Below are positions 4,233-60,081 of a stretch of DNA of 64,000 bases, piece after piece. Position 1 is the first letter of the stretch. Each line of letters starts with the position of its first letter. Below the pieces are notes generated by a model. It worked only from the letters and a program-made list of their open reading frames with translations, searched no databases and was not told the origin of the DNA. The position numbers and the translations under genes are program-made. This DNA comes from Eledone cirrhosa (Eukaryota), in the NCBI GenBank assembly GCA_964016885.1, contig OZ024755.1, forward strand, positions 28,830,001-28,894,000, in the 5' to 3' direction.

Positions 4233-4258
4233 TATATATATATAAATATGAAAATATA

Positions 4259-4530
<272 letters not shown>

Positions 4531-4870
4531 TTTTCGTAAAATCCATATTTAACTTAGATTCACTAACGTGCACAGAGGCAACTGACTAATCTATAATGAA
4601 TTTAATTGATGGTATATACTAAATATTCTATTTGAAATAGAAAGTATGAAAGAAATAGAAAGAAAATGGATTCTCCGGGCTAACAAAACCTTGCTCCAAA
4701 CTGATCTTGAACAGATGATTTAGACTGTCAGGAAATAAATTGCAAGCGTGCGACTAAATATTTTGACACTCACCAATAAACTGTTAGGAACGTATGTTAC
4801 CAGAAACAGGATATACTAGAAAATGTATCATCATAAATATTGAAAATGACCCTTGCGTGATGTAACTCTG

Positions 4871-6519: not shown

Positions 6520-6728
6520 TATTTCCACCGTCACCCCCCCCTTTTTTTTCTAAATGTCTCTCCTCCACTCCCCTACACACCATCGGACTCTTTTCCCACC
6601 CACCTTTCGCCTGAAGAAGGGCTTATGCCAGAAACGTTTTCCCCTCCCCCACACACTCTCAAGAGCGTGAAACTAATAAACTTTTGTTCGTACTGCCTCT
6701 CTGTTTTGTTCCCGTTCCATTTTTCACT
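6520..6728 (+). mobile_element. PLE pLTR-like mini-element (family E) with hammerhead core at 6611-6638
   Basis: CTGAAGA-AGGGC-TTAT-GCCA-GAAAC-GTT; homologous to 54915-55108 and 55310-55442; flanked by TA repeats. Confidence 0.7.
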
Positions 6729-7594: not shown

Positions 7595-7702
7595 ATCGAT
7601 CGCAATTTACATTATGTAAGAACTATATATAAGCGTGTCTGTGTGTGTATGCAATGAAAGAACGCTCCCGGCAGTTCTTACATAATGTAAATGGCGATCG
7701 AT
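7595..7702. repeat. 30 bp inverted repeat, MITE-like
   Basis: ATCGATCGCAATTTACATTATGTAAGAACT (7595-7624) pairs with 7673-7702. Confidence 0.75.
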
Positions 7703-8144: not shown

Positions 8145-8171
8145 ATGGATATATATATATATATATATGCA

Positions 8172-8527
8172 AAAGTTTTATTTAAGATTGTTGGGTTAAC
8201 AACGAGTAAATATTTTATAACTGATATAAAAGCACTCAACAGTTTCTGGAGTAGGTTTACGATATTAAACAAATGGAAACTATATTTATAAAACCATATT
8301 TATTTCGTTATATATATTTCTGGGATATCATATTAAAAATATGGTATGCCTTCCTCAGACAAAATACAATACATAAGCTGTTTTATAAATAATTAGTGAC
8401 ATACCTTGTAATAATGCAACTTCCTTTTAAAAAGTTGATTTGGTATTTTTAATATGATATCCCAGAAATATATATAACGAAATAAATATGGTTTTATAAA
8501 TATAGTTTCCATTTGTTTAATATCGTA
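8172..8527 (-). mobile_element. solo PLE pLTR (family C) with hammerhead and inverted 5' duplication
   Basis: Minus strand: AAG/GTATGT...TTTTGT-CTGAGGA...GAAA-TATATA-TA-ACGAAA (8301-8366). 8443-8527 is an inverted copy of about 8258-8341. Confidence 0.85.
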
Positions 8528-8845: not shown

Positions 8846-9027
8846 ACAATATTTCCATACAAACATTTTGTTCACTAATGCTTTTGGCTTTCCTGTATTA
8901 TTATTATTCTGTATGGTTTACCCTGAAATTAGTAATAACACACAGTTATTGGTGTTCATATTGCGGTATATACGAAAGCGTATGCGATATATTCGTGCAC
9001 AATAAACATGAAAGCTTAAGCTGTAAT

Positions 9028-9219
9028 AATTATTTCTACTTTTTGACACAAGGCCAGCAATTACCACAATTGCATTACTGGTACTTATTTTATCGACCCC
9101 GTAATGATGAAAGGTAAAGTTAACCTCGATCGGATATGAATTCAGACCGTAAAGGGCCATAACTCTATGCTGCAAAGCATGGCGTCTGACGCTCTACCGA
9201 TACTGCCAATCTACCACTG
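9028..9219 (-). mobile_element. main SINE copy
   Basis: Family consensus; target-site duplication (TSD) AGCTGTAATAAT. Confidence 0.9.
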
Positions 9220-9328
9220 TTAGCTGTAATAATATCATTGTTAATTCACACATTGAAAATCAAATATTGGAATTCGCACTATAATCAAATGTACACTTCC
9301 ATCAAATGTTTCAAACGCCGAAAAGAAT

Positions 9329-9420
9329 ATACCGTATTTCCCGGCGTAGAAGACGTTACTTTATTCCTAAAATAAGTCTCAAAATCTACCGTGCGTCCTG
9401 AAGGTCGAAAGATGTTTATT
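9329..9420 (+). mobile_element. Tc1/mariner-pogo (Tc2-like) transposon end remnant
   Basis: TA-CCGTATTTCCCGGCGTAGAAGACG resembles pogo/Tc2-type TIRs; no partner TIR seen. Confidence 0.5.
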
Positions 9421-9685
9421 ATTTTTTACCAAATTTTTGGTTGTTAACATTAGGGTTTTTTTTTCTCGAGGACGAGCGTTTTCGTCGCTGGGAAACTCAG
9501 TATCAAGTGAGTAAATGTCCCCGATGATAGATAATGATCTAGAAACTCACTTCTGCTATTCCCAACAACTACTAATGATAGCAGCGAAATGATCACAGCT
9601 TAAAAGAATCATAAAGTAATATCCATAGGATTAGTGCGCCTAAACCTATCGCATATGTCCCCATATACAACTCTACCATGAACCA

Positions 9686-9797
9686 TGCTATATTGCTGTT
9701 ACGGAAGTCTGATATATTACTGCTACGGAACCCTGCTATATTACTGTTACGGAAGTCTGATATATTACTGTTACGGAAGTATTATATATTACTGTTA
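9686..9797. repeat. 24 bp minisatellite
   Basis: About five units of TATATTACTGTTACGGAAGTCTGA. Confidence 0.9.
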
Positions 9798-9987
9798 GGG
9801 CAGTGGATTGGCAGTATCGGTAGAGGGTCGGACGCCATGCTTTCCAGCATAGTTACGTCCCTTTACGATCTGAGTTCAAATCCCGCCGAGGTTGACTTTG
9901 CCTTTCATCCTTACGGGGTCGATAAAATAAAGTACCAGTAATGCACTGGGTAATTTGCTGGCCTTGTGCCTAAAGTAGAAACAATTA
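9798..9987 (+). mobile_element. main SINE copy inserted into the minisatellite
   Basis: Family consensus; TSD TATATATTACTGTTA. Confidence 0.92.
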
Positions 9988-10871
9988 TATATTACTGTTA
10001 CGCAAGACCGAACAGGAATCATGCCTGACCTTGAATTGAAAATAATCACAAACTAGAGATTGCCAAAACCACAACACTCGTGTTAACAACAAACCATATT
10101 CATATAATCTTGTAGCAATATAGAAAATGACTTATATGAGTTGTAAGCTTTAGGAATACAGCTGTTACGTTGGTCATACTAATACATCACTTCCTTTGTT
10201 TTCCGTGCACTACAGTCAGGAAGCAATACATACACCCCCGCCTAAAAGGAAATGCAAAGCACTTCTAAAATGAATACGCAAACAGCTTACTACACACGCC
10301 AAAATTTAAATAAATATTTGGGTAATTGAGTGCCGACCAAACTTCACGTTCACTCCCGTAATACTAACTAGAAAGACATTAAATCTTAAACAAACCACGT
10401 TCACTCGTTATAAATATAGATAGAAACAACTCTTCGCATGCTTTAAGGTCTGAAGTATTAGAAGACGCGTAAATGATTTTTTTTCTTTTCCAGATGAAGC
10501 ATCATTGATCGAAATATTAAAGGAAAATATTTTCCAGAAATGGTGTAAATATGTACCCGAAAACCTATGCATTCTTCTTAGAACATTTGGATCCCTCGTG
10601 CATTCAGATCGAATAGCAAATTAGAAACAGTCCTGTTGGCTCGTAACATATGTAGGTTGAAATAAATGCTGAAGAGAAGTAACTATTTAGACATACGATA
10701 GAAATGCCCGATTTTTTTTGAAGGAATAATTTCAACACTAATATCTACGTTATCCTATTAAACATATTTCTATATGTATTTTTGTCCTATTCTTTCTGCC
10801 GATAAGTAGATTTTTTCTAACAATTCTAAGAAATGATAATACTGATTTAGACTGAATTACCTTTCTTAATA

Positions 10872-11060
10872 TAATTGTTTCTAATGTTGGCACAAGGCCA
10901 GCAATTAGCCAGTTCATTACTGGTACTTTATTTTATCGACCTGGTAAGGATGAAAGGCAAAGTTAACCTCAACGGAATTTGAACTCAGACCGTAAAGGGT
11001 CGTAACTATGCTGGAAAGCATGGCGTCTGACCCTCTACCGATACTGCCAATTCACCGCCC
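10872..11060 (-). mobile_element. main SINE copy
   Basis: Family consensus; TSD CTTAATATAAT. Confidence 0.92.
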
Positions 11061-11796
11061 TTAATATAATATCTATATACCGGTTTCTATATATAATTCT
11101 TATAACGTTTGTTTCATTACATCAGTCTATTAACTTGGCAAGCAAATAGAGTGTGTGAGAATATTACTAAAGTTGTAGCGTATATGATATATTAGAAATG
11201 TATGCGGGATTAAAGAGGATATTTTTGGGGTCAATATTCGTGATAGCTTCCGTAAATATTCATGCGTTTCTCAAAAGTTCAGGGTTGTATTTGAACCGGA
11301 TATAATTGGGCATCGAAAGCAAATTTTCTCCACTGTACACTTAATGCTTGTCATTTTTAGTTCACGAAACTTGTTACGCTATATAGTTCCACAAGTGGTT
11401 TGCCAAATTCTGTCACACGAACACTCTTTTTTCTCATGATAAATCTCTACTTATGTTTCGTTTGTTACTGTTGAATACATCTAGCTGATGACAGTTCAGC
11501 AAACGGAAATGATGATGTAATCCGTAAAAAATCTGATTTTGGTCTACTTATGTAGGCGGAAGGGTAAATGACAATTCCAAGCTCTCGCATCATGTTAATT
11601 AGATTTTAAACCAATTTCCTGTCTGCCAAAGGTATTATACCTTCCTTTATACACTTCACAGAAGGCAGTATATCTCACATCTTAAAACTACTATAATATG
11701 AAACAATGAAAGACGAGAAAAAGAAAGAAAGATGGAAAGTGAAACAGATAGAAAAACAGTCACACACTCGCACACTCATATATATATTTGTGTGTG

Positions 11797-11863
<67 letters not shown>

Positions 11864-11952
11864 AGACGTAAGATAAGAAAATTATAAAATTAACTTACTT
11901 AATATATATATATTTATTTATTTATATATATGTATATTTATTTATGAATGAA

Positions 11953-12235
11953 GTAATTCCGTCGGAAAAGTCCAGAAAAAAAGAGTGCTCTATGTAGGTA
12001 ACAGAGCATAATAGTTATGTAATAAACAACATATTTCTTACAAGCAAAAAATGTTGCTTTCAATCATCAGAATGAAAAAATCCTGGTGTATTTATTGATA
12101 TTGGATTCTTTAGAATCCAATATCAAAAATACACCAGGATTTTTTCATTCTGATGATTGAAAGCAACATTTTTTGCTTTTAAGAAACCACTGGTAAATGG
12201 ATAATTGCCTTATGTTGTTTATTACATAACTATAT
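11953..12235 (-). mobile_element. fold-back mini-element (family D) with stem-II-less hammerhead-like core
   Basis: About 100 bp arms centred at 12110 (GGATTCT-TT-AGAATCC). CTGATGA-TT-GAAA-GCAA...TTGC-TT on both arms. Tail shared with 56441-56502. Confidence 0.7.
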
Positions 12236-12290
12236 TTATTTATATATATATACATATATTTATTTATATATATATTTATATATATATATA

Positions 12291-12478
12291 GGAACGAGTA
12301 GGACCCCGACCGCTGAGCTCAATCCGTTTCGACGGCTAAGTCCAGAATTAGCCGTCGAAACGGCTTGAGCTCAGCCGTCGGGGTCCTACTTGTTCCTATT
12401 ACCCAATCTACTACCCTAAGTATTGAGTACTTTGGTGCGTTATGGTCCACCTGGTTCCTTACCAAATTTCCTTCGTTA
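12291..12478 (+). mobile_element. fold-back mini-element family A (hammerhead 3' half)
   Basis: 49 bp arms around GTCCAGAA; right arm GAAAC-GGCT-TGAGCTC-AGCC-GTC; fixed tail ...GGTGCGTTATGGTCCACCTGGTTCCTTACC; within (TA)n. Confidence 0.85.
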
Positions 12479-12530
12479 TATATATATATATAAGAAATAC
12501 TCTATATATTTTATCTAATGATTCTATGGA

Positions 12531-12572
<42 letters not shown>

Positions 12573-13426
12573 TATTTACACTAGACGGTAGCATATATTA
12601 GAAAATTGAAGTTATCATTAATATTGTGTAGACAGATAAATTAAGATTTTATCTTTTATTTTCTGTTTAATTAGGTGTCGCTTTCAAAGGAATGATGTAC
12701 AGACATTTTCAATTATTCTTCTGTACACATAAGAATTAATATACATTTGAATTTAAGCATTCGGTAGTATTGTACACATAATTGTGTATGTAGCATATTA
12801 TACGTATAACTGCGATGTATTATACGTATAACAGCTATACACGGGATGTGTATAGATGCGATATATATTTCATAAATGGTTAGACTACTTTGATTGATGT
12901 GCATACATTTGATGACGTAATTATCTTATCTATAATACAGAAAGCAGTGCGGGACTGCGTCCAGAATATATTTGTTTTACCCTGTTTCTAAAATGAGTTG
13001 GATTACTTTGAATATATAATGATTGAATATTACATAATTTATGTAATACATTTCGTAACACATGATTAAATATATTTTATTGCTTATTTAAAGATTCACA
13101 TTTTTTAAATTTTCAAACTCGACACTTCCGGTTAGCGGCCGTTATATTATAACACTTGTAAAAACATAGCATATATTTCCGTCGTTAATTTTCTCCTAAT
13201 GCAGTTTATATATGATATCGTCTTTTTTAAATGTATCATGGATTACGTTACTGATTACATAAGAGAGTGTAACGCAGTCTTCGTTCAACTTCTGTGCATA
13301 TTGTTAATTATGATTTTATTTGATGTATCATATCTACATGCGTGTATATTTGCGTATAATATCAATATACACACTACACATGCTAGCAAACAAACACCCT
13401 TCGTGTGGTGTTTCTGTTAGTTTAAA

Positions 13427-13535
13427 TAATGGTTTCTAGTATAGGCACAAGGACAGCAATTTTGGGAGAGGGGAAAGTCGATTAAATCGGCCTCAGTACG
13501 TTACTGGTACTTTATTTTATCAACCCCGTAAGGAT
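13427..13535 (-). mobile_element. partial SINE of the 1268-type subfamily
   Basis: GGCACAAGG...GGGGAAAGTCGATT...CTGGTACTTTATTTTATC. Confidence 0.75.
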
Positions 13536-13611
13536 TCCATCCCTGTACTCACATGGTAGTCGTGAGTAACGCACACACACACACATACACGCACACACAC
13601 TCATACACACA

Positions 13612-13932
<321 letters not shown>

Positions 13933-14049
13933 TTTCGGCCAGTCTTGACCCAGGCCATGTCGACCTCAATAGTACCACTCGGTGAAGTCTTTCAAATTAT
14001 TTCCAAAGTGAATTAATTCAAAGTTACCCAGTTTCAGTTGCATATTGAT

Positions 14050-14265
14050 TTTTACCTCCCATTTGATAACGGCAAGTAGATCCGATTGAAGGCCTGTCGG
14101 GTCTCAGAGTTCATTAATGATCTTCTGGAGCTTGGAATCATCTGCGAAGCTTTTATGTTACTCTGCTTGATGATATCAATAATGTTATTGATATAAATAA
14201 TGAAGATAGTTAGCCCCAACACAATGTTTTGTGGGATGCTAATACTGACTTTGACTGATAATAAT
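14050..14265 (-). pseudogene. CR1/L2-group LINE reverse transcriptase fragment
   Basis: VSISIPQNIVLGLTIFIIYINNI resembles the [23 protein letters not shown] RT motif. Confidence 0.75.
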
Positions 14266-14291
14266 TGTATTCCTTTGCCCACAGCATGTTT

Positions 14292-14330
<39 letters not shown>

Positions 14331-15392
14331 TTTCAATAACAAGAAAGATTGACAATAACTTAATTTGTACATCAGAGTAGTCCATTAAATCTAGAAATGA
14401 AATTTAGATAAAATTGGACTTGAACATTTGAGGTAAGATATGAACTGTGAAATATGCTTATTTCATTTTGTTTTCATCATATGCTTGCGCCCTCCCCGTT
14501 CCTAATTATTTATGTTTCCGAGTCTCCTACAATATATTTTGTTGTTCTAAAAGGATGGGTTTGTTGTTGTGTTTGCAGCTGAATACCTGACATTATGGAA
14601 AATGTAAATAGATAGAAATTGCGTCAGTTTATAAGTTAGTGAGGTATTTCGTCTTTATGATGACCCCCAAAATTCCCTACAAGGAATATTAACACACCAA
14701 CATGTAGTTGCAAAGATATGAGGAAACATAAGTATTTACATGTCGTCCTAAAAATATTTGCGTAAAAGAAAAAACCTTGGGAAAGAGTAACTCAATGATG
14801 GGAAGGAAAGGAATGTGGTTGACTGATACAAGATACAAAAAAAAGAAAAGAACAATGTATTTAAATAAATGAATCACTCATTGAAAACGAGAAGAAAAAA
14901 CTAGAGATACATTACAATGATAAAGATTAAGAAGTTAATAAATTCAACCGTCCAATGAGCTGTCAAGTGAAATTATTATTGAAAACGCTAAGAAGTGGAA
15001 TGAAGAGCTCTTATACTGTGGAGATATGGATCAGAGACGTCTGACAAGAGAAATGTTTAGATGCGTAGTAATATAACTGCCGGGTCAACATGATAGATTA
15101 TATTTCTGAAAAATAAATGTAAAAAGTGTAGCTTAATACAGGCTGAAAGCTAAATACGTCTGATGGGAAATACTCAAACTGCTATAGTCATGAGTGAGAG
15201 AAATATTTCAGGGCATTATGGTATTTTTAACATATTTGTCTTTCTTACATCAATCGTTTTCATATTTGTCAAGAATATAATCTAAACATTAGAATTTCTA
15301 ATAATTTTAAATACAAAGGAATCATAACAAGCTATCAAGCTAGGCGTGAGGGTCCTTTCGTGAATAAACGATTTCAAAGCAAATACTTATAT

Positions 15393-15580
15393 AATTGTTT
15401 CTATTTTTGGCACAAGGCCAGCAATTATCCCAATGCATTACAGGTACTTTATTTTATCGACCCCGTAAGGATGAAAGACAAAGTTAAACTTGGCAGGATT
15501 TCAGCTCAGACCCTAAAGGGACGAAATTCTATGCTGCAAAACATGGTATCCGACCCTCTAGTGATGCTGCCAATCCACCT
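15393..15580 (-). mobile_element. main SINE copy
   Basis: Family consensus; flanking AAATACTTATATAAT duplicated. Confidence 0.9.
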
Positions 15581-16529
15581 TATATAAATACTTATATAAT
15601 GCAGTTTAATTCTATCATGTTACTATTGACCCACAGTTTTTAGGCGTGATTTAAACTCAGAACACACAGAGCCGGATCATATACCACGTTATACCCGTAA
15701 GAAGTGCTAACGTTTCCATCAACGCTGGTACTATGTTTATCGAACCAAAGGGAATGAAAAGCAATGTTTACTTTGATGGGATTTCAAATGAAGGAGCGGA
15801 TAGCTGGAACAATTACAGCAATGCATTTAATTGGACGCTGTCAATGAATCTACCAGTTTACCCCATAAACCTTATTATACTTTACTTTTTATACAGGCAG
15901 TGACCCTGGATATTTTCGGGACCAACGTGCCGTGTGAAGAAGAAAGGAAAACATCCATTAACCGCAGACATGGTACGAACTATTGCAACATTTGTGCTAT
16001 ACCAAATTCCCGAAAAGGAACCAGAACAAAAACGTCTACTCAGACTCAATCTTCCCTGCCTTTAAAATCACCTAAGACTGATTCTTCATCTTATAACTGA
16101 GTGGATGAAATCCAAGTTTAACTTCGGTGCTATTTGACTCAAATCAAAGAAAATGACCACAAAAACAATTTGTACTACCTTCTTTACTACTCAGCTCAGA
16201 CGTCACTATATAAATAAATCAATATTTGTCTTAATACCTGTAAAATGAAAATGAGCAGCATTGTTTAAATTGAATATATGGTTATAGAAATATTAATTAA
16301 ATTCTTATATGTTCTCTAAAAATCTATTCACAATATATATATAAATATAGTATAAAGAAAACGAAAAATCAGTGATGCATCTGGACTTAATTTATTTCGT
16401 GTTACAAATGTTTCGCCGGCATGTAGCTCGAGACAAGGTCCTTGTATGGATCTGGCTGATTCTACTTCTGCGGGTTCTTTCAGACACGGGTGTTTCGTCC
16501 GGAGCAAATTTTATCACTGATAATAATCT

Positions 16530-16592
<63 letters not shown>

Positions 16593-16597
<5 letters not shown>

Positions 16598-16820
16598 TTC
16601 AAAATATTAACAAAAATACATTCGTGTGATCAAGTATATTTTATTATACATATTTCAGAGGTACAGAGCTATCTTCAACAGTACGTCCTCATCAGATAAA
16701 ATAAGATGATGCATGACATACCCTGACTAAGTAGATGGTTAAGATTCAGTCATGCTTCCAATCTATTGTAAAACTCATTCTTTGATTTATTCATGGAACC
16801 TTGTTTAACCTAAAAATATA
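16593..16820 (-). mobile_element. PLE pLTR-like mini-element (family I) with hammerhead at 16638-16702
   Basis: Minus strand: AGG/GTATGT...ATTTTAT-CTGATGA-GGACGTAC...GTACCTCT-GAAA-TATGTA-TA-ATAAAAT; near-identical to 40298-40575. Confidence 0.88.
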
Positions 16821-16984
16821 TGGATATATATGTGTGTGTGTATGTGTGTGTGTATATATCCATATATATATAAATATATATATATATGCATATATATATA
16901 TATATAAATATATATATATGCATAACTATGCATATAGATATACATAAATATGTACATATATATACATATATAAATATACATATA

Positions 16985-17535
16985 TGGTGGCTGCCAACTC
17001 GTTTTCGAGTACGGCCACTACTTTATATCCATGTAGGAGAACCCCTACCGATGCGCTGAACGAGTGTGACTTTTTAGTCCAGCCAGTGACTTAAAAACTC
17101 TGGTACGAACACTACACTTGTGACAATTATTGACACATAGTGCTGGGCCTATGGTACCATGTGACGACAAGTGCAGAGAGATCTCCAGATATAAAGCAAT
17201 GCCTGTGCCGTGAAGCTTTTATAGTGAGCAAAGGCACTGCACAAAGCCAGTCCCACTCTCTTAACCAAGATGATATTTACCAAAAAGAATAACAAGTCAA
17301 CATCATTGGATACCATCAGGGTTGCAGGTGCTATATCAGAGTTTTCCTTCTCCTAGAATTCTGCCTTGACAAAGAGTAAGGGGTCATCTCTCCCGGTGAT
17401 TTTGGATGGCCATTCGGGTCGTTGGCGACTAAACTGGCAACCCCCACCAAGGTTTCTTGGTGAGGAGGCTGACTTTGGACATCCTGCAGGACTAAAAACA
17501 AAACCTGTCAAAGGACAAAGGTGCTCTTAAGAGTC
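16985..17535 (-). mobile_element. bipartite RTE-derived element, copy 3, with 5' inversion
   Basis: Matches the other copies; about 17412-17535 is inverted relative to 25543-25665. Confidence 0.85.
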
Positions 17536-18548
17536 ATATACATATATATATACATATATGTGTACGTATGTTTGTATATGTGTACGAGTGTGTACGTATG
17601 TGTGTATATGTTTGTGTATGTGTATGTATGTGTGTATGGTTGGATGTATTATATATGGATAGAATGAGAGAGAGTGGGGCATAGGAAGGAGCAAAAAGAA
17701 AATTAATTATATATATATATATATATGAATACTCAACCATACAACTAAAATCCCCGTGATACTCTCTCTCTCTCTTGGATATATGTTTTCAGACTTTCAA
17801 CAATCTGAATAAACACTATACATATTGACGATTAATATGTAACCAATATGTTGTGTCATAACATTTTATATTATAGTGTATTAAAATACAAACTTGGGAG
17901 AAATTATGTCTATCTGGGGACACTATATTTACTTCTCCAGATGATAGCTTGTAAATTAAGTACAAGAAATATTACAGTGTTTATATAAAGGATCTGTATT
18001 CTTACTGGGCAGAAATTCGGTTAAGCCACCACGTCATAAAAATAACAGACATTAAAGACAAATATTATAATATTTACATTAAAAATGAACAAATATTTCA
18101 TAATTCTCTCCTGCTGGAAAGATTCTATGGTTTGCAATTCATATTTCACACATAATAAATCTACGTTTATATATATTAGTATCGACAATAACCTTACGTT
18201 TGGGCATTGGAATTCTGCAAGGTAAATGAGTGCATTTGTTGTTTTTCAGAACGTTAAAGAACGACTACGTACATGAAATTTAGCCTTGATATATTTAGCC
18301 TTAATGCTGTGGTTTCGTGAGAACAAGTGCAGCACCGTTTACTGTTGGTAATGTCATCGAGGAGAAATGATGAAATGAAACATGAGGAAACAGCAGTGAC
18401 ATGATTTTGCCACAGAGAGGACACTGTTAAGGCAAGCAAACGGCTAGGCCACCGTTTTAAATGAAAAATATCCGCTACAATTTAGCTGGATTCTCTTGAA
18501 TACTGCTTTCTTTGATACGTAACAGATTTCAAATTTGGGTTTAGGAAT

Positions 18549-18970
18549 CTCTCGCTCTCTCTGTCTCTCTCTCTCTCGCACAGACACACACACACACACA
18601 CACTTTCTCTCTCTCTGGCTCTCTCTCGCACACACACACACACATACTCTCTCTCTCCCTGTCCCTCTCCAACACACACACACACTCCCTCTCTCTCTCA
18701 GACACACACACTCTCTCCCTCTCTCACACACACCCTCTTTCTCTCTCCCTCTCACACACACACACGCACTCTCTATCTCTCTCTCACACACACTCTCTCC
18801 CCCCTCTCTCTCTCTCACACACACACTTTCTCCCTCTCCCTCTCTCTCTTTTACACACACACTCTGTCTCTCTCCCTCACACACACACACACACACTCTC
18901 GCTCTCTCTTTTTCTCTCTCTCACACACACACACACACTCTCTCTATGTCTCTCTTTCCTTCTCTCTCTT
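18549..18970. repeat. complex (CT)/(CA) microsatellite
   Basis: Direct reading. Confidence 0.95.
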
Positions 18971-19599
18971 ATATATATTATATTACATTTTTATTACAGC
19001 TCTTTAACGTACTATATAGACAATTAGACCAACCCCCGTGCATATCAGGTACGTTAATCTATCGCCATCAGAAAGATGATATGTAAAACTAATATTGAAA
19101 TAGGAACTACATACCATTCTTTTGTCAGTTATGCCCGGCCATAGTAATAAATATGACTTGAATATAAATGTCTAAAGATATTTATATCGATCACTGTACT
19201 TTGCTTGATCCTTAAATTAATATTAACTAAAACATTTCATATGTGAATTCGATTGGATAAAGAGAAAAATATCATTCACACTTACTGTATAAAAACCAAA
19301 TCAATAAACATTCACATCGATTCTATATAAAACTGAGACACATAATATTGTAATATATGTTGTAGTGAACCAAAACAATGGCCTCTTTTTTTTAACAAAG
19401 TTTATGTTTCGTGTACACTCTTACTATCATTTCAACATTTCCCCTCCATAATTCAGGGCGTCGGAATGGCGGACATTTTAGAACATCTGACAGAATTCAG
19501 ATTCGTTTTTATAATTATTCTTTTCAGATGTTCAGATAGATATTGCTGAGGTCATTTTTGCTGTTTTAATATTTTAGAACCCCCTAAAATATAAGATAT

Positions 19600-20105
19600 A
19601 TATCTCCAAGTACCGGTCGAACTCCGACAGGTTTGGGGTCGTGCCCTTGGCATGTGGAGACTTCTGGTGTCCTTAGCGCTAGGGATACCACCATACTAAC
19701 CACCACAAGCGCTGAGCTGGCCAGCCGCAAGTGTGAGCCTACAGCTGATCTGTGAAAACATGTAATGAGACACTAATAGGCACACAATCATATTGCTTCG
19801 ACAATAGGTGAAGTGAAACACCGTTTAAAACCACTGACGTCACGTCAGAGTTATCAATCAGCAGAGTCAACGGCCATCAAAATAGTACTTTTTTTTCATC
19901 TGAGAGTGAAAGGCCCCCATTTGTTGTCCAAAACACCTTTCTAAGTGAGGGAATTTCTGAAAAAAACCTGCGGCTTCGGAAGCATCCGATGATGTTGACC
20001 AGTGCGCTTTTTTGAGTAGTGTTTTCGTTGCTCATGGTGTGGGATTGGTCGAGTGCAACGCCTTTCTCCACTTAAAAAACCTTGAAAGCGCAGTCATTGC
20101 TTGTT
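19600..20105 (+). mobile_element. possible RTE-type 5'UTR remnant
   Basis: GC-richer block; AGAGTCAACGGCCATCAAAAT resembles AAGAGTCAATGGCCATCCAAAAT in the RTE-derived family. Confidence 0.35.
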
Positions 20106-20420
20106 CAGGATATGTTATTTATAAAAAGCCCCACATGATCCGTTATTTGGGCGGAATCAGATGACCCCATAGTGATATCGAAATTATTATCTCTATCTGC
20201 TCTAGGCCAGAGGTGGTTGTTAAATTTAATTAATGTTTTCCGTGCTGTTACGATAATGTGCATTTCATTACTAGTTAAGTCTGTATGCTTAAATGCATAT
20301 TTAAGTAGATTAGGAGTGATGGATGAGTAATAATTAGCAATATCCAATTGAATAAACTTATTATTATAGTTATATTAAATGTCTTTAAACCATTCGATAA
20401 CTTCGTTAGTTCCTTTAGAA

Positions 20421-21932
20421 CTAACGAAGTTATCGAATGGTTTAAAGACATTAAATATAACTATAATAAGTTTATTCAATTGGATATTGCTAATTACTCA
20501 TCCATCACTCCTAATCTACTTAATAAAGCACTGACATGTGCATTTAAACATACAGACTTAACTAGTAATGAAATGCACATTATCCTAACGGTACGGAAAA
20601 CATTAATTAAATTTAACAACCACCTCTGCACTAGAGCAGATAGAGATAATGATTTCGATATCACTATGGGGTCATCTGATTCCGCCCAAATAACGGATCT
20701 CGTGGGGCTTTTTATAAAAATACTCTACATAGAAAAATACCGGAGATGACCGGAGGTTTGTATCGCGACGATATGTTATTACTTATCGAAAATAATAACT
20801 GTGAATTAGTATAGGAAAAGAAAAGAAATTATACAATTTTTTAATTACCTTAATCTTAAAGTAGAAATAGAGAATAATTATAAAATAGTTAACTTTCTAG
20901 ATGTAACCTTAAACCTTAACACATGTCTTTATTATCCATTTTACAAATTAAACGAGAACTTAAACTACGTTAATTTTAACTCCAATCACCCCAGATCCGT
21001 TAAAAATACTATAGTAAATTATGTACAGCAACGCATTTCTAGAATTTCAGCTAATAAGAATATTTTTGATGATAAAGCACAGTATTACAAGCGAAGCGTT
21101 AGGGAGGGCTGGATATAGTAATAAAATTAAATACATTGATAATAATAATATAACAACTAACCATAATTTTAACAACTATATTAGAAAACCTTACAATAAT
21201 TCGAAAAACAAAAAAAGAAATAGAACTAGGAATATATTATGGTTCGCTCCTCCTTTCTCATTAAATATTAAAACTCCTATTGCTAAACTACTCTTTAAAG
21301 CTCTTGACAAATGCTTCCCTAGAACACATAGATATTACTCAATATTTAATAGACACACTATAAAATTAACTTATTCAACCACCAGTAATTTAGCGCAGAA
21401 CATTTATAGAATTAATAATGGAAACTTAAACCCTAACCAGAATACCATTAACAACCCCAGCAATATCCAATTTAATAATACGGCTCCTAGTAACTTGAAT
21501 TTTGATAAATGTAACTGTAGAAATAAATCTAACTGCCCGTTAAATAACAATTGTTTAGCTAAAAATATAGTATATAATTGTAATGTAAAAACTAATTTAA
21601 ATTCATTTAATTATGTAGATTCTACTTCCACAGTCTTTAAATCTCGTTTTAATAACCATAAATGCTCTTTTACGAATATAAATAAAAAATCCTCAACTGC
21701 TCTATCTAGCTTACTATGGGACCTAAAATCAAAGAACATTAACTATTCTTTACTTCGGAATATTATCTCCAAAGCTCCTCCATTCAATGTTTATTCTGAA
21801 AATTGTTCTCTTTGTATAGAGGAAATATTCTTTATATTAAAAAGCAAAAATTCTGTGAATTTAAGGAACAATCTTTACAGTTGCTGCAAACATAGATTAA
21901 ATTCAACGATTAAATATAAATTTAAAATGTAA
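20421..21932 (+). pseudogene. PLE RT plus GIY-YIG endonuclease ORF, frameshifted
   Basis: ORFs 20348-20749 and 21021-21932 with intervening RT motifs broken by stops and frameshifts. Confidence 0.9.
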
Positions 21933-23034
21933 TATATAACTCATCGTATTAAACCTATCGATAAATCATTAGATTCCTTCATACCACTGCCTAAAACTCT
22001 CTTAAATGAAAAATATTTTCCTTAAAACGTTTTCCTTGAAAATTCTTCTAGATAAACATAAAAAGGCTTTGTTATAAAAGTTTTTTACGGTTTATGCTTT
22101 AGATATATTCTTATGAAAAACTTTAAACATTAAGACGTTATAGTAAACAAACTTATATTTTAACAGTCACAACTGTATAACAGGTGGATTTATAAAATAT
22201 ATAAAATTTATAAAATTATAACTTGCTATAAAATAATATAAGATCTTTTTATAATCTTAACTTTTTTTATCATCTTAACCTTTATAACATTTAATCCTTA
22301 GAGCTAACTAAATTACAAATAAATCACTTAATTTCCTTCACGCTGTATTGCTATTACGAAGAAGAGATTATTCTTCGGTAAAATCTCTGAATTTCCATGG
22401 GTTTAGAAACATTCCTATATTTTAAACATAACATTTTTTATTTTCTATTGATAATTAATTGAAAAATTAATAATTAATTGTTGGTTGATGATTAATAATA
22501 AATTTATATATGGTTATGTAATAATAACATATATTTTAATAATACTTTTTAATAATATATATATATATTCTTTTAATAATATATAGATCTCAATAATTTA
22601 ACTGACATATTTAATTGATAAATTAAACATTTAATCAAATTTAAACATTAGATAAAATTCTACGGTTATTATTATTTATTTATTTATTTATTTATCCACG
22701 CTCTATTTATTCCACGTAATTCATCCACTATATATTTATTTTTTCGCTTCATCATCTCATAAATTACGTTAATACAACACTCTCTCACTTAGGGTTTTCT
22801 CTTTCTCTTTCTTTTGTTTTCCTTCTTTGGGTTGGCTCTTTCTTTTTCTTTTTCATTTTTTCCCTAGTCCAACGGCTTAATTTAAATGTCCTGGGATTTA
22901 AACCCCTCCGACACTAATTTGCATTATAGACCAATAATAAAATTAGTAACCCCACTATCCGGGAGCCCCCAACCGACATGGCCGGATTCTTTAAGGGTAT
23001 GTCAATATTTGTTTATAAAACTGTTCTATATTAT

Positions 23035-23098
23035 ATTTTATGTGATGAAAGCGCACCATAATTTGCTTTGGTGTCCTTGAAATATGTATAATGAAATA
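23035..23098 (+). ncRNA. pLTR hammerhead (core mutated to GTGATGA)
   Basis: TTTTAT-GTGATGA-AAGCGCACCA...TGGTGTCCTT-GAAA-TATGTA-TA-ATGAAA. Confidence 0.75.
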
Positions 23099-23227
23099 AA
23101 TATGGTTTTATAAATATAGTTTCCATTTGTTAATATATTGTATATTTACTCCAATAATTTGTTGAGTGCTTTATATCAGTTATAAAAATATTTGCTTGTT
23201 GTATTCCAACAAATTAAATATAACTTC

Positions 23228-23320
<93 letters not shown>

Positions 23321-25120: not shown

Positions 25121-25725
25121 TGGCGGCCAACTCGTTTTCGAGTACGGCCACTACTTTATATCCATGTAGGAGAACCCCTACCGATGCGCTGAACGAGTGT
25201 GACTTTTTATTCCAGCCAGCGACTTGAAAACTCTGGTACAAACACTACACTTGTGACAATTATTGACACGTAGCGCTGGGCCCATGGTACCTTGTGACGA
25301 CAAGTGGAGAGAGATCTCCAGATATAAAGCAATTCCTGTGCCGTGAAGCTTTTATAGTGAGCAAAGGCACTGCACAAAGCCAGTCCCACTCTCTTAAACA
25401 AGATGATATTTACCAAAAAGAATATCAAGTCAACATCATTGGATACCATCAGGGTTGCAGGTGTTATATCAGAGTTTTCCTTCTAGAATTTTGCATTGAC
25501 AAAGGCTAAGGGGTCATCTCTCCCGGTGATTTTGGATGGCCATTGACTCTTAAGAGCTCCTTTGCCCTTTGACATGTTTTGTTTTTAGTCCTGCAGGATG
25601 TCCAATGTCACCCTACTCACCAAGAAACATTGGTGGGGTTGCCAGTTTAGTCGCCAACAGCCCGACCTTGAGACAGGTTGAACTGGGATACATGTTACCA
25701 GTAGCACCAACTGGTGACCTGACAT
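25117..25725 (-). mobile_element. bipartite RTE-derived element, copy 4 (longest)
   Basis: Matches copies 1-3 and extends furthest 5'; TA tracts on both sides. Confidence 0.85.
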
Positions 25726-41350: not shown

Positions 41351-41699
41351 ATATCAAATGTATGTTGATGAATGAATGAAATGTGTATATATGTAGGCAT
41401 AAAATGTTGTTCTCTACTACGTCCGTGGCTTAGTGTGATGTGAAAGAAAGTCATAACTTTCTACCAAAGTTATGGCTGACGGCTGTGGGATTTGAAAATG
41501 TCAAAGCAGTGTTTGTGTTAGGCTTGTGGTGGGTAATTTGACATGGTGAGTCGTTTAAGGGATTTTGATTATTTTGTGTATTTAAATTGTTTTATCTTTC
41601 ATTCGTGAGTCTTGTTTCAATGGTGGAATTCTGTGGCTGTGTTCTGATGAAAAATATAACATTGGGTATGTTTGAAGTGTATTTATTTTGTTGAACTTG

Positions 41700-47614: not shown

Positions 47615-48295
47615 TATAGTAAGGTGTATTATTGGTTGTGTAAAACTGTCCAATAAATTGATGTTAGCAATACTAAGTTCTCCACGCTTTTGTATATCTC
47701 CAATTCCATTCAAGGGAACAGCTAGATGATGTAAAACGAGTATCAAAATGAAAATCTGAAGGCAAGGTAAAATCCCAATCATTTTCATCACAATACATGT
47801 TCCAATAAGAGATAGATCGATCGTAAAGCCATGATCAATTATCACTGATCTCATCAGATGAAAATGAATTGTCTTCAAATTCTTGATGTGAGAGAGAAAA
47901 TTAGCAATGTTCACTGACAGAGTTTATTCCCTCATATGAAGATCCAGTAGTCAGACATACGGCGACTGCTATCGGCTTCAGTTAGGGTCATAAAACTGTC
48001 AAATCTCCATAGTTGCAAAGGACGCTGGACATTAATCAGATCTGGAGAAATACAGTCGGTCACAGTTAATGTGAGTGGGTACACACACACTCAACACCCA
48101 TACACAGGCTCGAGGTCAAAGAAAAAAAAAATATACACATATCAACACAGCATCAAACCTGTAGAACTATAGACGGTCACAATTACTGTGAGTGGGTACA
48201 CACACACTCTCACACACACCGAAGCGATGTCATAGAAAAAAAACAACAAATATAAGAATAAGAATATACCAACACAGCATTCACCGAAAGTTCGT

Positions 48296-49640
48296 TTACA
48301 AAACAACAAATGCTACATTAGTCAAATCTTGTCTGATGGTGGTGGTGTTAGTGTGGTGGTTGTTGGAGGTGACGGCGGTGTCGTTGCTGCGAGTCGCCTT
48401 TCTTCTTTTACCCCTCGTTGGTTGCCTTCGCTTTCGGAGGGTGAAGCTAAGGGTTTTTTTTTGTTTTTTTTTTTGTTTTTTGTGGCAGACCGTTTGCCAC
48501 TTCACTCCCACCTCATACTCCATGTCGAATTCCATGGCGTCTGGGAGGGGTATGAGCTCCACTGCTGTTGATGGTGGTAGTGGAGCCCGCTCCGGCGATT
48601 TTGCCGCCGGTGTAGCTACTGCAACTGTTGGTGTTGCCGTCTCTACTGCCGCTATTTTAGTTATCCGTGACCTACTCATCAAGGAAGGGTCATCTGCCTC
48701 TGTTGACTGCCCTGCTCTTGGTAACAGCGGATCAGGCGTCGGAGGGAGGGGACCCTCTTCTTGCCTGTCTTCTGCCAGCAGAAGGCCCTGAGGTGACCCT
48801 TCTGCCCACAGAGATAGTAATTTTGGCGCCTTCCCTCCACGTTTATAGGGAGTTGGAGTCCTTCCTCGAGGTCTATGATATCTGGGATGGCCTCGATGCA
48901 CTCCTGGTCAGTTTGTATTAGCATTTACATGCCTATACCTGACCAGTTCTCTTTTCCTATTCTCTGCATTTGCAGTATGGTTGTCCTGTCCTCGATTCCA
49001 GCAAGTGCAGACGCGGCCAGCCAAGGTATGTGCACGTCTGGCGTGACCTGGGTCACTTTGACCCTCACAATTTTTTGCCCGCATTAGGAGGGCACCAAGA
49101 CTATCTCTTCACTCTTTAGGGTTTCCAAAGAGTGAGACTTGGTTCTTGGGGGTGGCAAAAAGTACGTCTACTGTGGCGTACCTTTTGCTTCGGGTGATGT
49201 GGGATTTGCGCGCCTTTGGGATTTGAGCCTCCGTGGCTCTCTCCACCCGACGTGACATTTTGCTTACGGCGTGGTAAGTCTGCGTGCGCAGGTACTGGTC
49301 CTTGAAGAAATCGGGTGGAGGTTTCAGAGAAACTCTATTGTCATTTCTTGTCACCATGGCTCTTGCGACTGACGAGCACTCTTTCTACTTTCGGCGCAGG
49401 GCCTGCGAAAGAAGTGGCCCCTTTTTCAGCGGCACCATTATTGCTGCCGCTACTGCTGCTACTAGTCTTGTTGTTGGTGCTGTTGGTGTTGTTGCTGTTA
49501 TCACTGTTGTAGTTGGTTGTGTTTTTGGTGCCACCGATGTTGTTCTTTTCGGTGCAATTTGTATTGTTGCTGTTGGTGTTGTCGTTGTTTATTTTCTTGT
49601 TAGTGGTGTTAATATGGTTGTTGCATTTGTTGTCATTATT
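48296..49640 (-). pseudogene. decayed LINE ORF1 (gag-like; L1/Tx1-type)
   Basis: GC-richer coding-like block with VEGRRQNYYLCGQKGHLRAFC, a degenerate CX2CX4HX4C knuckle; frameshifted across several ORFs. Confidence 0.65.
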
Positions 49641-52616: not shown

Positions 52617-52684
<68 letters not shown>

Positions 52685-52686
<2 letters not shown>

Positions 52687-52861
52687 AATGATATTAAATA
52701 AATGGAAACTATATTTATAAAACCATATTTATTCTATAAATATACTTTTCATTTATTTAATATCATTGAATATTATTCTCCAGAAGCTTGTCGAGTGCTC
52801 TGAATTAGCTCTAAACATTTATATTTGTTGAATTACCAACAAATCGAATATCCCTTTTGCT

Positions 52862-52862
<1 letters not shown>
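52685..52862 (+). mobile_element. family C pLTR tail with fold-back
   Basis: AATGATATTAAATAAATGGAAACTATATTTATA pairs with TATAAATATACTTTTCATTTATTTAATATCATT; then CTCC...TGTCGAGTGC tail. Confidence 0.75.
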
Positions 52863-53752: not shown

Positions 53753-53863
53753 CCAGTAAGACCCCATGGGGTCTTACTGGTTCCTATTACCCACTCCACT
53801 ACCTCAAGTATTGAGTACTTTGGTGCGTTATGGTCCACCTGGTTCCTTACCACATTTCCTTCG

Positions 53864-54914: not shown

Positions 54915-55107
54915 GTTTCCTTTCGCTATATGTCTCTCCACCACTCCCCTACACACCCTTTGAACTCTGTTCCCACACACTTCTCACCTGAGGAAGGGCT
55001 TATGCCCGAAACGTCGTTCCCCACCACCACGCCACTCTCCAGAGCGTGAAATTAATAAACATTCGTTGTACTGCCTCTCTGTTTTGTTCCTGTTCAAAGT
55101 TTTCCAT

Positions 55108-55141
<34 letters not shown>

Positions 55142-55442
55142 AATAGAGTCAGGGCCCGGACGGCTGAGCACCCGCGGCCGTTTCGACAGCTATCTCTGAT
55201 AGATAGATATCGTACGGCCGGAGCTCAGCCGTCGGGGTCCTGACTCCTTTCCTATTACCCACTCTATTACCTACAGTAAGTAGTACTCTGGTGCGTTATG
55301 GTCCACCATACTTCCTCACCTGAGGAAGGGCTTATGCCCGAAACGTCGTTCCCCACCAACACCCCACTCTCCAGAGCGTGAAATTAATAAACATTCGTTG
55401 TACTGCCTCTCTGTTTTGTTCCTGTTCAAATTTTTCCATCCT
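54915..55442 (+). mobile_element. two family E hammerhead units flanking a family A element (55139-55308)
   Basis: CTGAGGA-AGGGC-TTAT-GCCC-GAAAC-GTC at 54988 and 55320, with nearly identical tails. Confidence 0.82.
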
Positions 55443-56542: not shown

Positions 56543-56546
<4 letters not shown>

Positions 56547-58774
56547 AAAGTTCTATTTAAATTGTTGGGATACAACAAGATAAATCAACAACCTATCACT
56601 TAGAGCTTTCGCTCTCTCTTCTCTTTCTCTTTTCTCTCTATCTTTTTTCTTTTTTTTTCTCTCTTGTTCTTCTCTCTCTCTCTCTCTCTCTCTATCTCCG
56701 TAACCCAACGGCTTATTTTCAAATATCCAATACTAATTTACATAATAGTATAAATAAAGTTATAACCCCACTATCCGGGAGCTTCCAACAGTAATGGTTG
56801 CATTCTTTAAGGGTATGTCAATACTTATTTATAAAACTGCTCTATATTATATTTTATCTGATGACAGCACACCATAATTTAACTTGGTGTCCTTGAAATG
56901 TGTATAATGAAATAAATATGGTTTTATAAATATAGTTTCCATTTGTTTATATAGTATTTTTACTCCAATTATTTGTTGAGTGCTTTATATCAGTTATAAA
57001 AATATTTGCTTGTTGTATCCCAACAACTTAAATAGAACTTTTACATATATTCTGCTCCTTCATTGTCGAGTGCTTTATATTATAACTGAAAAATGGAATT
57101 CTTTAAGACCTCTTCTTCTCTAAAGGACATACCTTTACCTAGGAATAAAGATTTTATTAAGCAATTAATAGAAAAATCAGACTCTTTTATAAGAAGAATC
57201 AGTTGGCGTGCTTTCCACTTCGATAAATCTAATCTAAATGAAAATGTCTCCAATCTTGATAAAATATTCAAATCTAAAAAAATAAACTACGTTAATTTTA
57301 ACTCTAATCACCCCAAATCCGTTTAAAATACTATAGTAAACTCTGTACAGCAACGCATTTCGAGAATTTCAGCTAATAAGAATATATTTGATGAAAAAGC
57401 ACATTATTACAACGAAGCGTTAGGTAGAGCTGGGTATAGAAATAAAATTAAATACATTGATAATAATAATATAACAACTAACCATAATCTTAACAATTTT
57501 AACTATTTTAACAATTTTAACAACTATAATAGAAAACCTTACAATAATTCGGAAACAAAAAAAGAAATAGAGCTAGGAATATATTATGCTTCGCTCCTCC
57601 TTTCTCATTAAATATTAAAACCCCTATTGCTAAACTCTTTTTTAAAGCTCTTGACAAATGCTTCCCTAGAACACATAGATATTACTCAATTTTTAATAGA
57701 CATACTATTCAATTAAATTATTCATACACCAAAAATTTAGCGCAAAATATTAATAGAATTAATAATAGAAATTTAAAACCTAACCAAAATACTACTAATA
57801 ACCCAAGCAATATCCAATTTGATAAATGTAACTGTAGAAATAAATCTAACTGTCCGTTAAATAACAATTGCTTAGCTAAAAATATAGTATATAATTGTAA
57901 TGTAAAAACTAATTTAAATTCATTTAATTATGTGGGATCCACTTCCACAGAGTTTAAATCCCGTTTCAATAATCATAAAAATTATTTTACTAATCCAAAC
58001 AAAAAATCTTCAACTTCTCTATCTAGCTTATTATGGGACCTCAAATTAAAGAACGTTAAATATTCGTTGCTTTGGAATATTATTTCAAAGCTACTCCTTT
58101 TAACTCCTCTTCTGAAAATTGTGATCTTTGTATAGAGGAAATATTCTTTATATTAAAGACGAAAAATTCCCTGAACCGAAGGAACAATTTATTCAGTTGC
58201 TGCAGATATAGATTGAACTCAACGTTTAAATATAAATTTAAAATGTAATATATAATTAATTAATTAATTCTATTAATATATTGAACCTATAGATAAATCA
58301 TTAGATTCCTTCATTTTGACTGCTTAAACTCTCAAGTAAAAAAACTTTTCTTCCTAAATATAAATAGATATAAAATCTCTTCTAGAGAAACATACTGAAA
58401 GCTCTTAAAAGGGGAAATATTATTTGATAGTTTCTCCTATTTTGAAAGTTTCTCTTTTGAAAGTTTCTCTTTCTTTCTCTTATGGATATAAAATTAAGTT
58501 AAATATACGAAGAAAATGTTTATACTAAATCTATTAAACATATTATTATTTTAAAATTATAACTTGAAATATTCTATAATTTTTTAAAATTATTTTGATC
58601 GTAATATAATTATTTTTTTATTTTATTTATTTTTTATTTCATTTCATTTCATTTCATTTCATTTCATTTTATTTTATTATTTTTTTTATTTTATTTTATT
58701 TTATTTTATTTTATATCATATATATTATGTACTTCAATTATACTATGTACTGTATTTATATATCTATCTCTCTC

Positions 58775-58825
<51 letters not shown>

Positions 58826-59759
58826 TATATTTATATGCATGTATATATATTTATGTGTGTGTATGTATGTGTATATACATATATATGTGTGATGAATATC
58901 TACCTATATGTTGTAGGTACGTCTATGTGTATATATGTGGGAATTGAGTATATATATGTGTATATGCATACAATTCGATTGCACTCGTTTATAAGGCTTC
59001 TCTTAAGGTTCGTGATAAATAAACCGTCACATAAATAACAGTCACAACTACATAACAGGTAGATTTATTAGATATAAAACTTATATATATAAAAAAATTG
59101 TATAATAACATAAAGTGTGTATAACATAAAATTTCCTTTAATATCTTAACAATTGTAACATTTATATAACTAAATAACATAATCTCCTTCACGCTGCTTT
59201 GATATTACATAGAAATGATTTTCTCTGTTTTTCTAAGATTTTCTATGAACAATCTATAAGCTTATGAACATTCTTATATCTTAAATTAAAAATCCTTTAT
59301 ACTTTGTATGTATATATTATGTACGTGGGTATATATATGTATATGTATTTGTATGTATATATATTTATATGTATATATATCTGTGTGTGTGTGTGTATAT
59401 ATATATGAATATATTCTTTTAATAATATATAGATTTTTTAATAATATATAGTCTTAATAATAATATATAGATTTCTTAATATATAGATCTCAATTTTTAA
59501 TGTATAGATCTCAATAATTTAAATGATAAACTAAACATTTAATCATATTTAAACAATGGTTAAAATTCTCATGTTATATATGTATCTTCCATTCACGATT
59601 ATTTACATTTCTCTATTCATCCATAAAAAATAAATATTTATTTATTCTTTCATTTCATCTCAAATGTTAAGATAACTCAACAACCTATCACTTAGAGCTT
59701 TCGCTCTCTCTTCTCTTTCTCTTTTCTCTCTATTTTTTTTATTTTTTTCTCTCTCTTGT

Positions 59760-59843
<84 letters not shown>

Positions 59844-60081
59844 GTAACCCAACGGCTTATTTAAAAATACCCAATACTAATTTACATAATAGTATAAATA
59901 AAGTTATAACCCCACTATCCGGGAGCTTCCAACAGTAATGGTATGTCAATATTTATTTATAAAACTGCTCTATATTATATTTTATCTGATGAAAGCACAC
60001 CATAATTTAACTTGGTGTCTTTGAAATATGTATAATGAAATAAATATGGTTTTATAAATATAATTTCCATTTGTTAATATC

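Follow-up and report, generated by a model that had tools for sequence, protein, structure and literature searches.

How does a truncated PLE come to carry an inverted copy of its own 5' end, joined to it head to head? The question is raised by a locus in a 64,000-nt stretch of the Eledone cirrhosa assembly (contig OZ024755.1), referred to here as the window. Its core is a hairpin made up of three features:

20118..20412, minus strand: inverted arm, a 295-nt copy of PLE RT coding sequence
20413..20417, no strand: spacer of 5 nt, CTTTA
20418..20718, plus strand: direct arm, the 5' end of the truncated PLE

Local alignment within the 64-kb window identifies 20118-20412 as the reverse complement of 20418-20718, with 278 of 289 aligned positions identical; 11 substitutions and three indels (3, 3 and 12 nt) separate the arms. 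The stem is perfect over 35 bp at the apex, and the mirror symmetry ends after 295 nt, in unique flank. With microsatellites masked, this is the top self-inverted match of the whole window, and folded as a single strand it reaches -300 kcal/mol, whereas shuffles average -53 (z -63, equalled by 0/20 shuffles). PLE RT is encoded in both arms, as seen from tblastn matches on both strands at 57-60% identity to the best homologues, and the inverted arm spans the surroundings of the motifs DIANYYSSI and TMGSSDS. A first-pass annotation had described a duplication where a PLE is truncated on its 5' side; alignment and tblastn show it to be genuine, and the coordinates and 5-nt loop given there are exact by alignment and folding. 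Its statement that NYYSS is kept in the left arm and NKALT in the right was likewise borne out, and a third indel (NYNN versus NYN), absent from that account, can be added.

The decay of the two arms was read against the first 40 homologue segments covering the region, taken from 150 proteins. The right, direct arm has two 3-nt deletions (N and Y lost) and the changes W>C, Y>C and A>V, and the left, inverted arm has its own stop codon, a 12-nt deletion, L>V and L>H. Judged by these 40 homologues, the left arm alone kept the ancestral Y, W and NYNN length, and the right arm alone kept NKAL, L and an open frame. Each arm thus retains ancestral residues that the other lost, which marks the hairpin as old genomic DNA and not an assembly fold-back. 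The same comparison agrees with the earlier claim of independent arm indels, two of which arose on the right and one on the left. About 3/11 of the arm differences are synonymous by an eye count, in which one codon with two changes is ambiguous, and the neutral expectation is 21% (p 0.71). Between the two PLE family copies in the window, single-change codons number 37 synonymous and 24 non-synonymous (~3/11 versus 37/61, Fisher p 0.052). The near-neutral substitutions between the arms therefore fit a single template with neutral decay afterwards. An origin from two templates of different active lineages, suggested by the three in-frame indels, was rejected on this neutral pattern and on the deletion of a residue found in 40/40 homologues. 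The inner 106 of 289 nt, nearest the apex, carry 1/11 substitutions (p 0.048), and conversion between the arms may explain this scarcity.

Behind the hairpin lies the remainder of the element, with the following parts:

20420..21932, plus strand: broken ORF with RT core, thumb, CxCX5C linker and degenerate GIY-YIG endonuclease with CxxC and CxH
21933..22794, plus strand: AT-rich 3' untranslated region (UTR)
22795..23231, plus strand: pseudo-LTR (pLTR) with tail
23232..23316, no strand: (TA)n microsatellite at the 3' junction

The ORF is split into the frame segments 20420-20716, 20704-20793, 20813-21103 and 21093-21914 by three frameshifts, and its stop codon is at 21930-21932; the PLE, previously called coding, is not coding-competent. 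The tblastn matches are co-linear from RT through to the C-terminus, with RT followed by a C-terminal GIY-YIG. No PLE protein or segment from the window has a Pfam match above cut-off, and the homologues P0001 and P0003 match GIY-YIG below cut-off only; the GIY-YIG call thus rests on alignment. The linker CNCRNKSNC (CxCX5C) is found in both window copies of the family. CCHH is absent, the endonuclease core having a single C, and CSLC and CKH are present near the C-terminus. The N-terminal RWK/DKT region was lost from the 20420 copy with the 5' truncation, and the second copy of the family has RRISWR and no DKT region; in the 6/7 aligned homologues that cover the N-terminus, RWR/RWK occurs in four and DKT in five. 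A type I hammerhead motif at 23034-23098 has the core GTGATGA, its first C changed, and an intact predicted motif is present in the second copy (59978-60042). TATA adjoins the 3' end of the pLTR in the family sequence, and the (TA)n at 23232..23316 is likely the target. The region 22161-22821 resembles 59036-59726 of the second copy at 66%, a weak similarity on the 3' UTR side. Hydra-clade elements are defined by CxCX5C, CxxC, CxH, the absence of CCHH, a hammerhead and (TA)n (PMC8557442, excerpt). The PLE at 20420 is assigned to this clade by its motifs and (TA)n target, as read from sequence, and not by a tree.

Searches for relatives returned 671 matches in the full protein library (best 60%), and one match from 30 candidates among longer proteins (57%). 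A search at near-equal protein length gave zero candidates, and two scans of bacterial and archaeal genome contigs gave 62 and 201 pattern matches, none of them confirmed as relatives. A close relative spanning the hairpin apex was not found in the protein searches, the bacterial and archaeal contigs or the second window copy. An Rfam scan had no hammerhead among the matches listed (150 of 272). These listed matches were to miRNA-type models driven by microsatellites or hairpins, all below gathering score, and mir-3524 over the apex (two matches, 41 bits versus 99) was rejected as a generic hairpin. The hairpin is without evident present function.

At the outer end of the inverted arm, the hairpin abuts an older repeat:

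19880..20117, plus strand: left flank, older sequence related at 64% to a ~400-bp repeat family and cut off at the arm or just before it

This repeat family is presumably RTE-like. The 20117/20118 junction has neither microsatellite nor target-site duplication, and the 3' part of the flank repeat was not found to the right of the PLE (score 10, shuffled mean 10.4). DNA was therefore lost at the outer junction, during insertion or later. The cut in this older repeat makes it less plausible that the left junction simply marks the left margin of the (TA)n target. The outer arm end lies inside RT (20718-equivalent), not at the element 3' end or pLTR. When an inverted remnant of 20719-23230 was sought in 9000-20117, short low-scoring matches only were obtained, the best candidate being a 21-nt match to a pLTR-equivalent region. 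Pfam gave nothing above cut-off in either flank.

Other insertions of the same kind are present in the window, among them a second copy and two related pLTR pieces:

56544..60081, plus strand: second copy of the PLE family, with pLTR, ORF start at 57093, RT deleted, endonuclease and pLTR
8168..8527, minus strand: solo pLTR from a related subfamily; inverted arm of 84 nt, 84/84 identical
52684..52862, plus strand: solo pLTR fragment, with an inverted arm reaching 18 nt further 5' than the body

The second copy carries a 36-nt inverted tail (56544-56579), so that the tail sits on the inverted arm and is missing from the 3' end. As a side observation, its N-terminus continues in frame into the thumb region, with RT deleted near 57282. 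The solo pLTR at 8168..8527 has a 102-nt body-strand spacer and (TA)n on both sides, and the inverted arm of 52684..52862 extends up to the predicted hammerhead cleavage site. Multiple short non-coding hairpin elements were also found, starting at these positions:

12291, 13720, 27099, 51819, 52910, 53748, 55138 and 55981: family A
26560 and 32747: family B
56245: family C
11975: family D

Elements of families A-D were seen between microsatellites with head-to-head 5' arms. A tail motif like GAGTAC/GAGCAC/GAGTGC is common to several mini-families and the PLE pLTR, and the apex at 53753 coincides with GTC/GGGGTC, where a hammerhead would cleave, provided that the upstream core, missing here, exists.

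Altogether, 24 PLE-type insertions were listed by hand from a hairpin search, a hammerhead scan and shared tails, so that the list is partly ascertained on hairpins, and they were compared with 16 SINE-like and 5 RTE-like copies. The inverted pairs at 7595-7702 and 4258-4531 were left out of the PLE list, since neither showed a hammerhead or PLE tail; they are inverted pairs of ~35 and 59 bp around simple-sequence spacers and are possibly MITE-like. Inverted 5' arms were found in 15/24 PLE-type insertions and in 0/21 SINE- or RTE-like copies. Four of the 15 arms scored low at first, owing to microsatellite masking or internal deletion, and were confirmed in unmasked sequence. The ~190-bp SINE-like repeat, none of whose 16 copies has an inverted arm, occurs at these positions:

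1268, 7847, 9026, 9779, 10867, 15389, 27290 and 29097: SINE-like copies 1-8
31123, 34565, 34696, 38193, 39530, 42570, 44191 and 45523: SINE-like copies 9-16

A microsatellite lies beside the arm start in 14/14 other hairpins, to which the 20118 arm is the exception. By eye, arms start at a fixed family position in 3/3 cases in the PLE family, 6/7 in one mini-family and 2/2 in another. In 4/14 other hairpins, the inverted arm, itself without a tail, has element sequence missing from the tail-bearing body:

52685: 18 nt of arm-only sequence
12034: 24 nt of arm-only sequence (arms otherwise 97/98)
51997: 23 nt of arm-only sequence
56252: arm-only hammerhead core plus stem I

Five hairpins have a body longer than the arm, and elsewhere the comparison is ambiguous or leaves 0-2 extra bases. 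In 5/7 mini-family hairpins, the inverted arm resembles its own body most (the remaining two being one with a 21-nt arm and one with a mis-aligned deleted body), so hairpins look as if made per insertion. The apices of several mini-elements cluster at one position.

Strong type I hammerhead-like motifs number eight in the window and 0-1 in each of 20 shuffles:

3120, 12144, 16703, 40139, 40466, 43462, 59978 and 41358: hammerhead-like motifs, the one at 41358 perhaps by chance

Most of these motifs were seen in short (TA)n-ended elements, several without an inverted arm. A minimal CTGAGGA...GAAAC hammerhead-like motif was also seen by eye in elements 54926-55107, 55299-55439 and 6550-6724, one of which is fused behind the hairpin element at 55146. 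A GC-rich segment at 48192-48907 has open frames of ~200 aa on both strands. The 20118 hairpin had been proposed to link the mini-element hairpins to the PLE mechanism. One half of this stands, since short hairpin elements are PLE-related (three are pLTR pieces of the family or close relatives, and hammerhead motifs are present); the other half does not, the 20118 copy being the worst bridge, with an outer end unlike all 14 others.

The five spacer bases can be read on either strand. Before TNEV they give K-G on the inverted strand and F-R on the body strand. Among the residues before the conserved T in 99 homologues, W is found in 86, K in 38 (K/R in 62) and F in 0, and G at -1 in 0/99. The body-strand apex S-F-R-T is GTTCCTTTAGAAC; the inverted-strand apex ends K-G-T, and W-K-G-T would be AAAGGAACT. 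A random loop would give K on either strand with a chance of 0.086, and K/R with 0.14; these values replaced a stricter loop statistic (p 0.018), which was over-fitted. This is modest evidence that the spacer, read on the inverted strand, would match the family protein, which the body-strand reading would not, and given G in 0/99 the inverted-strand reading is half-supported. The nearest relatives are only 57-60% identical, so that the source sequence at the apex is not fixed by them. Spacers can be rewritten after insertion through deletion at palindrome centres. By eye, the spacer is body-strand element sequence in five other hairpins (12291, 55983, 26738, 8525 and 56545), which fits a model of two cDNAs as well as one of snap-back.

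With a probability of about one half, the hairpin represents two independently primed cDNAs of one 5'-broken RNA, joined end to end. The first cDNA would have been primed at the pLTR tail beside the (TA)n and copied over 2.8 kb. The second would have started from the other target end on the same RNA and extended past the end of the first by 4 nt, as far as AAAG, probably with the addition of one untemplated A. The polymerase on the first cDNA may then have jumped to the 3' end of the second cDNA and copied back to the flank, giving CTTTA. Spacer polarity and the arm-only sequence in 4/14 hairpins are the reasons for favoring two cDNAs over snap-back: arm-only sequence cannot be supplied by copying of the first cDNA, unless each body was deleted later. 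The reading is also favored by the microsatellite beside all 14 other arms and their mostly fixed starts, by the tail placed on the inverted arm at 56544, by the one-template pattern and by the arm counts of 15/24 and 0/21. In vitro, both strands of the target are nicked and extended by a purified PLE protein, which starts RT at two sites that delimit the tail and is predicted to be dimeric (PMC11167929, excerpt). By analogy, the fixed arm starts in the window may behave like these two start sites. Nicking and extension of both strands in vitro, taken with the spacer and arm evidence, led us to infer two cDNAs and a template jump. Jumps of R2 from one end to another are referred to in PMC11204384 (excerpt), and a jump at the 20118 hairpin would be analogous. 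The length of the arm may have either of two causes, each rather doubtful and neither ahead of the other. Priming may have occurred internally at UAUA, with TTTATA microhomology and a resected target end, or a longer classical inverted copy may have been trimmed later, together with the left (TA)n and flank.

Further points weigh against the joining of two cDNAs. Ends within 4 nt of each other mid-ORF would need reuse of the RNA with strand displacement, and an outer end with no microsatellite or target-site duplication and with lost flank fits snap-back better. For L1, twin priming preserves target-site duplications, and target deletions accompany end-joined truncations (PMC11702581, excerpt). 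In snap-back, a single first-strand cDNA would have left the RNA, primed itself, been copied over ~295 nt and joined to resected upstream DNA via TTTATA microhomology. We consider this the less probable of the two, at clearly below even odds. It would account in one step for the common end point of the arms, an arm that is internal, the loss of flank and the absence of a microsatellite; snap-back followed by upstream joining is an observed class of R2 5' junctions (PMC11204384, excerpt), and self-priming has been proposed for PLE palindromes (PMC3846280, excerpt). However, a templated loop would need an S-F-R source, in a family in which the homologues have W in 86/99, K/R in 62/99 and F in 0/99; otherwise, 7-9 untemplated bases with a stem of 1-2 bp would be required, and the arm-only sequence in 4/14 hairpins is left unexplained. 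The fold-back mechanism of the first-pass annotation is not the best supported, as its loop would misfit the family on the body strand.

Host repair unrelated to retrotransposition, in which a longer PLE copy broke and the break was closed through fold-back synthesis and joining at microhomology, is improbable. Flank DNA is missing at the outer junction, as this would predict, and there are precedents in human inverted duplications, whose median length is 284 bp and whose junctions show microhomology (PMC12350158, excerpt), and in 52-220 bp fold-back duplications of target DNA at L1 insertions (PMC10191854, excerpt). However, head-to-head arms in the window are confined to PLE-type insertions, at 15/24 against 0/21, and the spacer problem of snap-back is shared. 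A similarly low likelihood is given to self-priming of an antisense transcript, proposed for head-to-head PLE palindromes in PMC3846280 (excerpt), or to the copying of a donor locus that already had a hairpin; the clustering of several mini-element apices at one position agrees with it, whereas hairpins that look made per insertion (5/7 arms closest to their own body) and the lack of a second copy of the 20118 hairpin within the window do not. Assemblies are known to have difficulty with inverted structures of PLEs (PMC8557442, excerpt), but a fold-back chimera from assembly or library is very improbable here, with 11 substitutions and 3 non-homopolymer indels separating arms that kept complementary ancestral residues.

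More generally, and only tentatively, PLE head-to-head repeats may arise from twin target priming, with one RNA reused and a jump between the 3' ends of both cDNAs, without self-priming; starts of the second primer at an internal UAUA could then give fully duplicated mid-ORF hairpins. If this is true, spacer polarity and arm-only sequence at (TA)n-anchored PLE junctions would be a genomic read-out of the inversion step. A cheap discriminator of mechanism is suggested by the window, namely the strand of the spacer and arm sequence missing from the body. For the locus itself, the source sense sequence upstream of GAACTAACGAAG is the relevant datum: AAAG would favor two cDNAs and CCTTTA snap-back. 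Given that 64 kb contain 15 arms, junctions sufficient for the test can be expected genome-wide. In the literature covered, which left out most subscription papers, no study was found in which PLE models were tested by spacer polarity or by arm-only sequence, and one may exist. The origin of the tandem and inverted structures of PLEs is stated as open in the available parts of PMC8557442 and PMC11167929. If transcribed, such hairpins could by analogy yield double-stranded RNA and siRNAs, as long inverted repeats within the Penelope body do in Drosophila transformants (PMC3681739, excerpt).

Among known systems, the closest likeness is to Hydra-clade PLEs of the C-terminal EN+ type, with which the element shares CxCX5C, CxxC and CxH, the lack of CCHH, the pLTR hammerhead and (TA)n; at ~1.3 kb with pLTR, its 3' UTR is long for this clade. 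The clade includes Penelope-13_HM and Hydra-1_Obim, the latter from Octopus bimaculoides (Craig et al. 2021, PMC8557442, excerpt). An inverted 5'-truncated copy adjoining the 5' end is typical of PLEs in the available part of the same source, and Penelope-13_HM has a 966-nt copy of this type at its 5' end (excerpt of the supplement). The head-to-head position beside the 5' end is shared, with a 5-nt spacer at 20413, but the classical inverted copy starts at the element 3' end and target junction, and in Penelope-13_HM it includes the hammerhead region at the 3' end, whereas the 20118 arm is internal RT only. Adineta vaga Penelope elements have head-to-head inverted repeats and palindromic junctions, including one 304-bp inverted non-pLTR segment (PMC3846280, excerpt). 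An inverted segment beside the 5' end and a palindromic junction are common to the Adineta vaga and Drosophila cases and the 20118 hairpin, but those cases mostly involve the pLTR and have target-site duplications of 8-10 bp, whereas the 20118 hairpin is mid-ORF with no duplication. Hammerhead-bearing short elements like those in the window have been argued to derive from PLE pLTRs (bioRxiv 10.64898/2026.07.22.740005, excerpt). R2 snap-back (PMC11204384, excerpt) likewise leaves the cDNA end in inverted copy at the 5' end, whether full-length or truncated, and then joins it to upstream DNA; R2 is a different retroelement class, and the 20118 spacer, read on the body strand, conflicts with the conservation among homologues, none of which is a close full-length relative.

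Twin priming of the L1 type was reportedly described by Ostertag and Kazazian. It resembles the proposed mechanism in that the other target end primes a second cDNA at an internal site through microhomology, and the two cDNA ends are joined (PMC11702581 and PMC12350158, excerpts). In L1 inversions, no more than about 1-10 bp is duplicated or deleted at the internal breakpoint, and the target-site duplication survives (PMC11702581, excerpt), whereas the 20118 hairpin duplicates the full 295-nt inverted segment, has no target-site duplication and has a deleted flank. L1-type geometry is present in the window in an RTE-like copy at 16986-17535 (compared with 25122-25665), which has a 123-nt 5' inversion with a flush, non-duplicating breakpoint. 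The contrast with L1 twin priming drawn in the earlier reading therefore holds, with a full 295-nt overlap at 20118 and the non-duplicating type in the RTE-like copy. That inverted 5' segments are known for Penelope was also correctly stated there (PMC3846280 and PMC8557442, excerpts), but the clean hairpin geometry is not the novelty it was taken for, having already been described (PMC3846280, the PMC8557442 supplement and PMC11204384, excerpts). With palindromic PLE junctions and the R2 snap-back class both published, the geometry is not new, and the 20118 hairpin, which matters little alone, is one decayed insertion of a known junction type.
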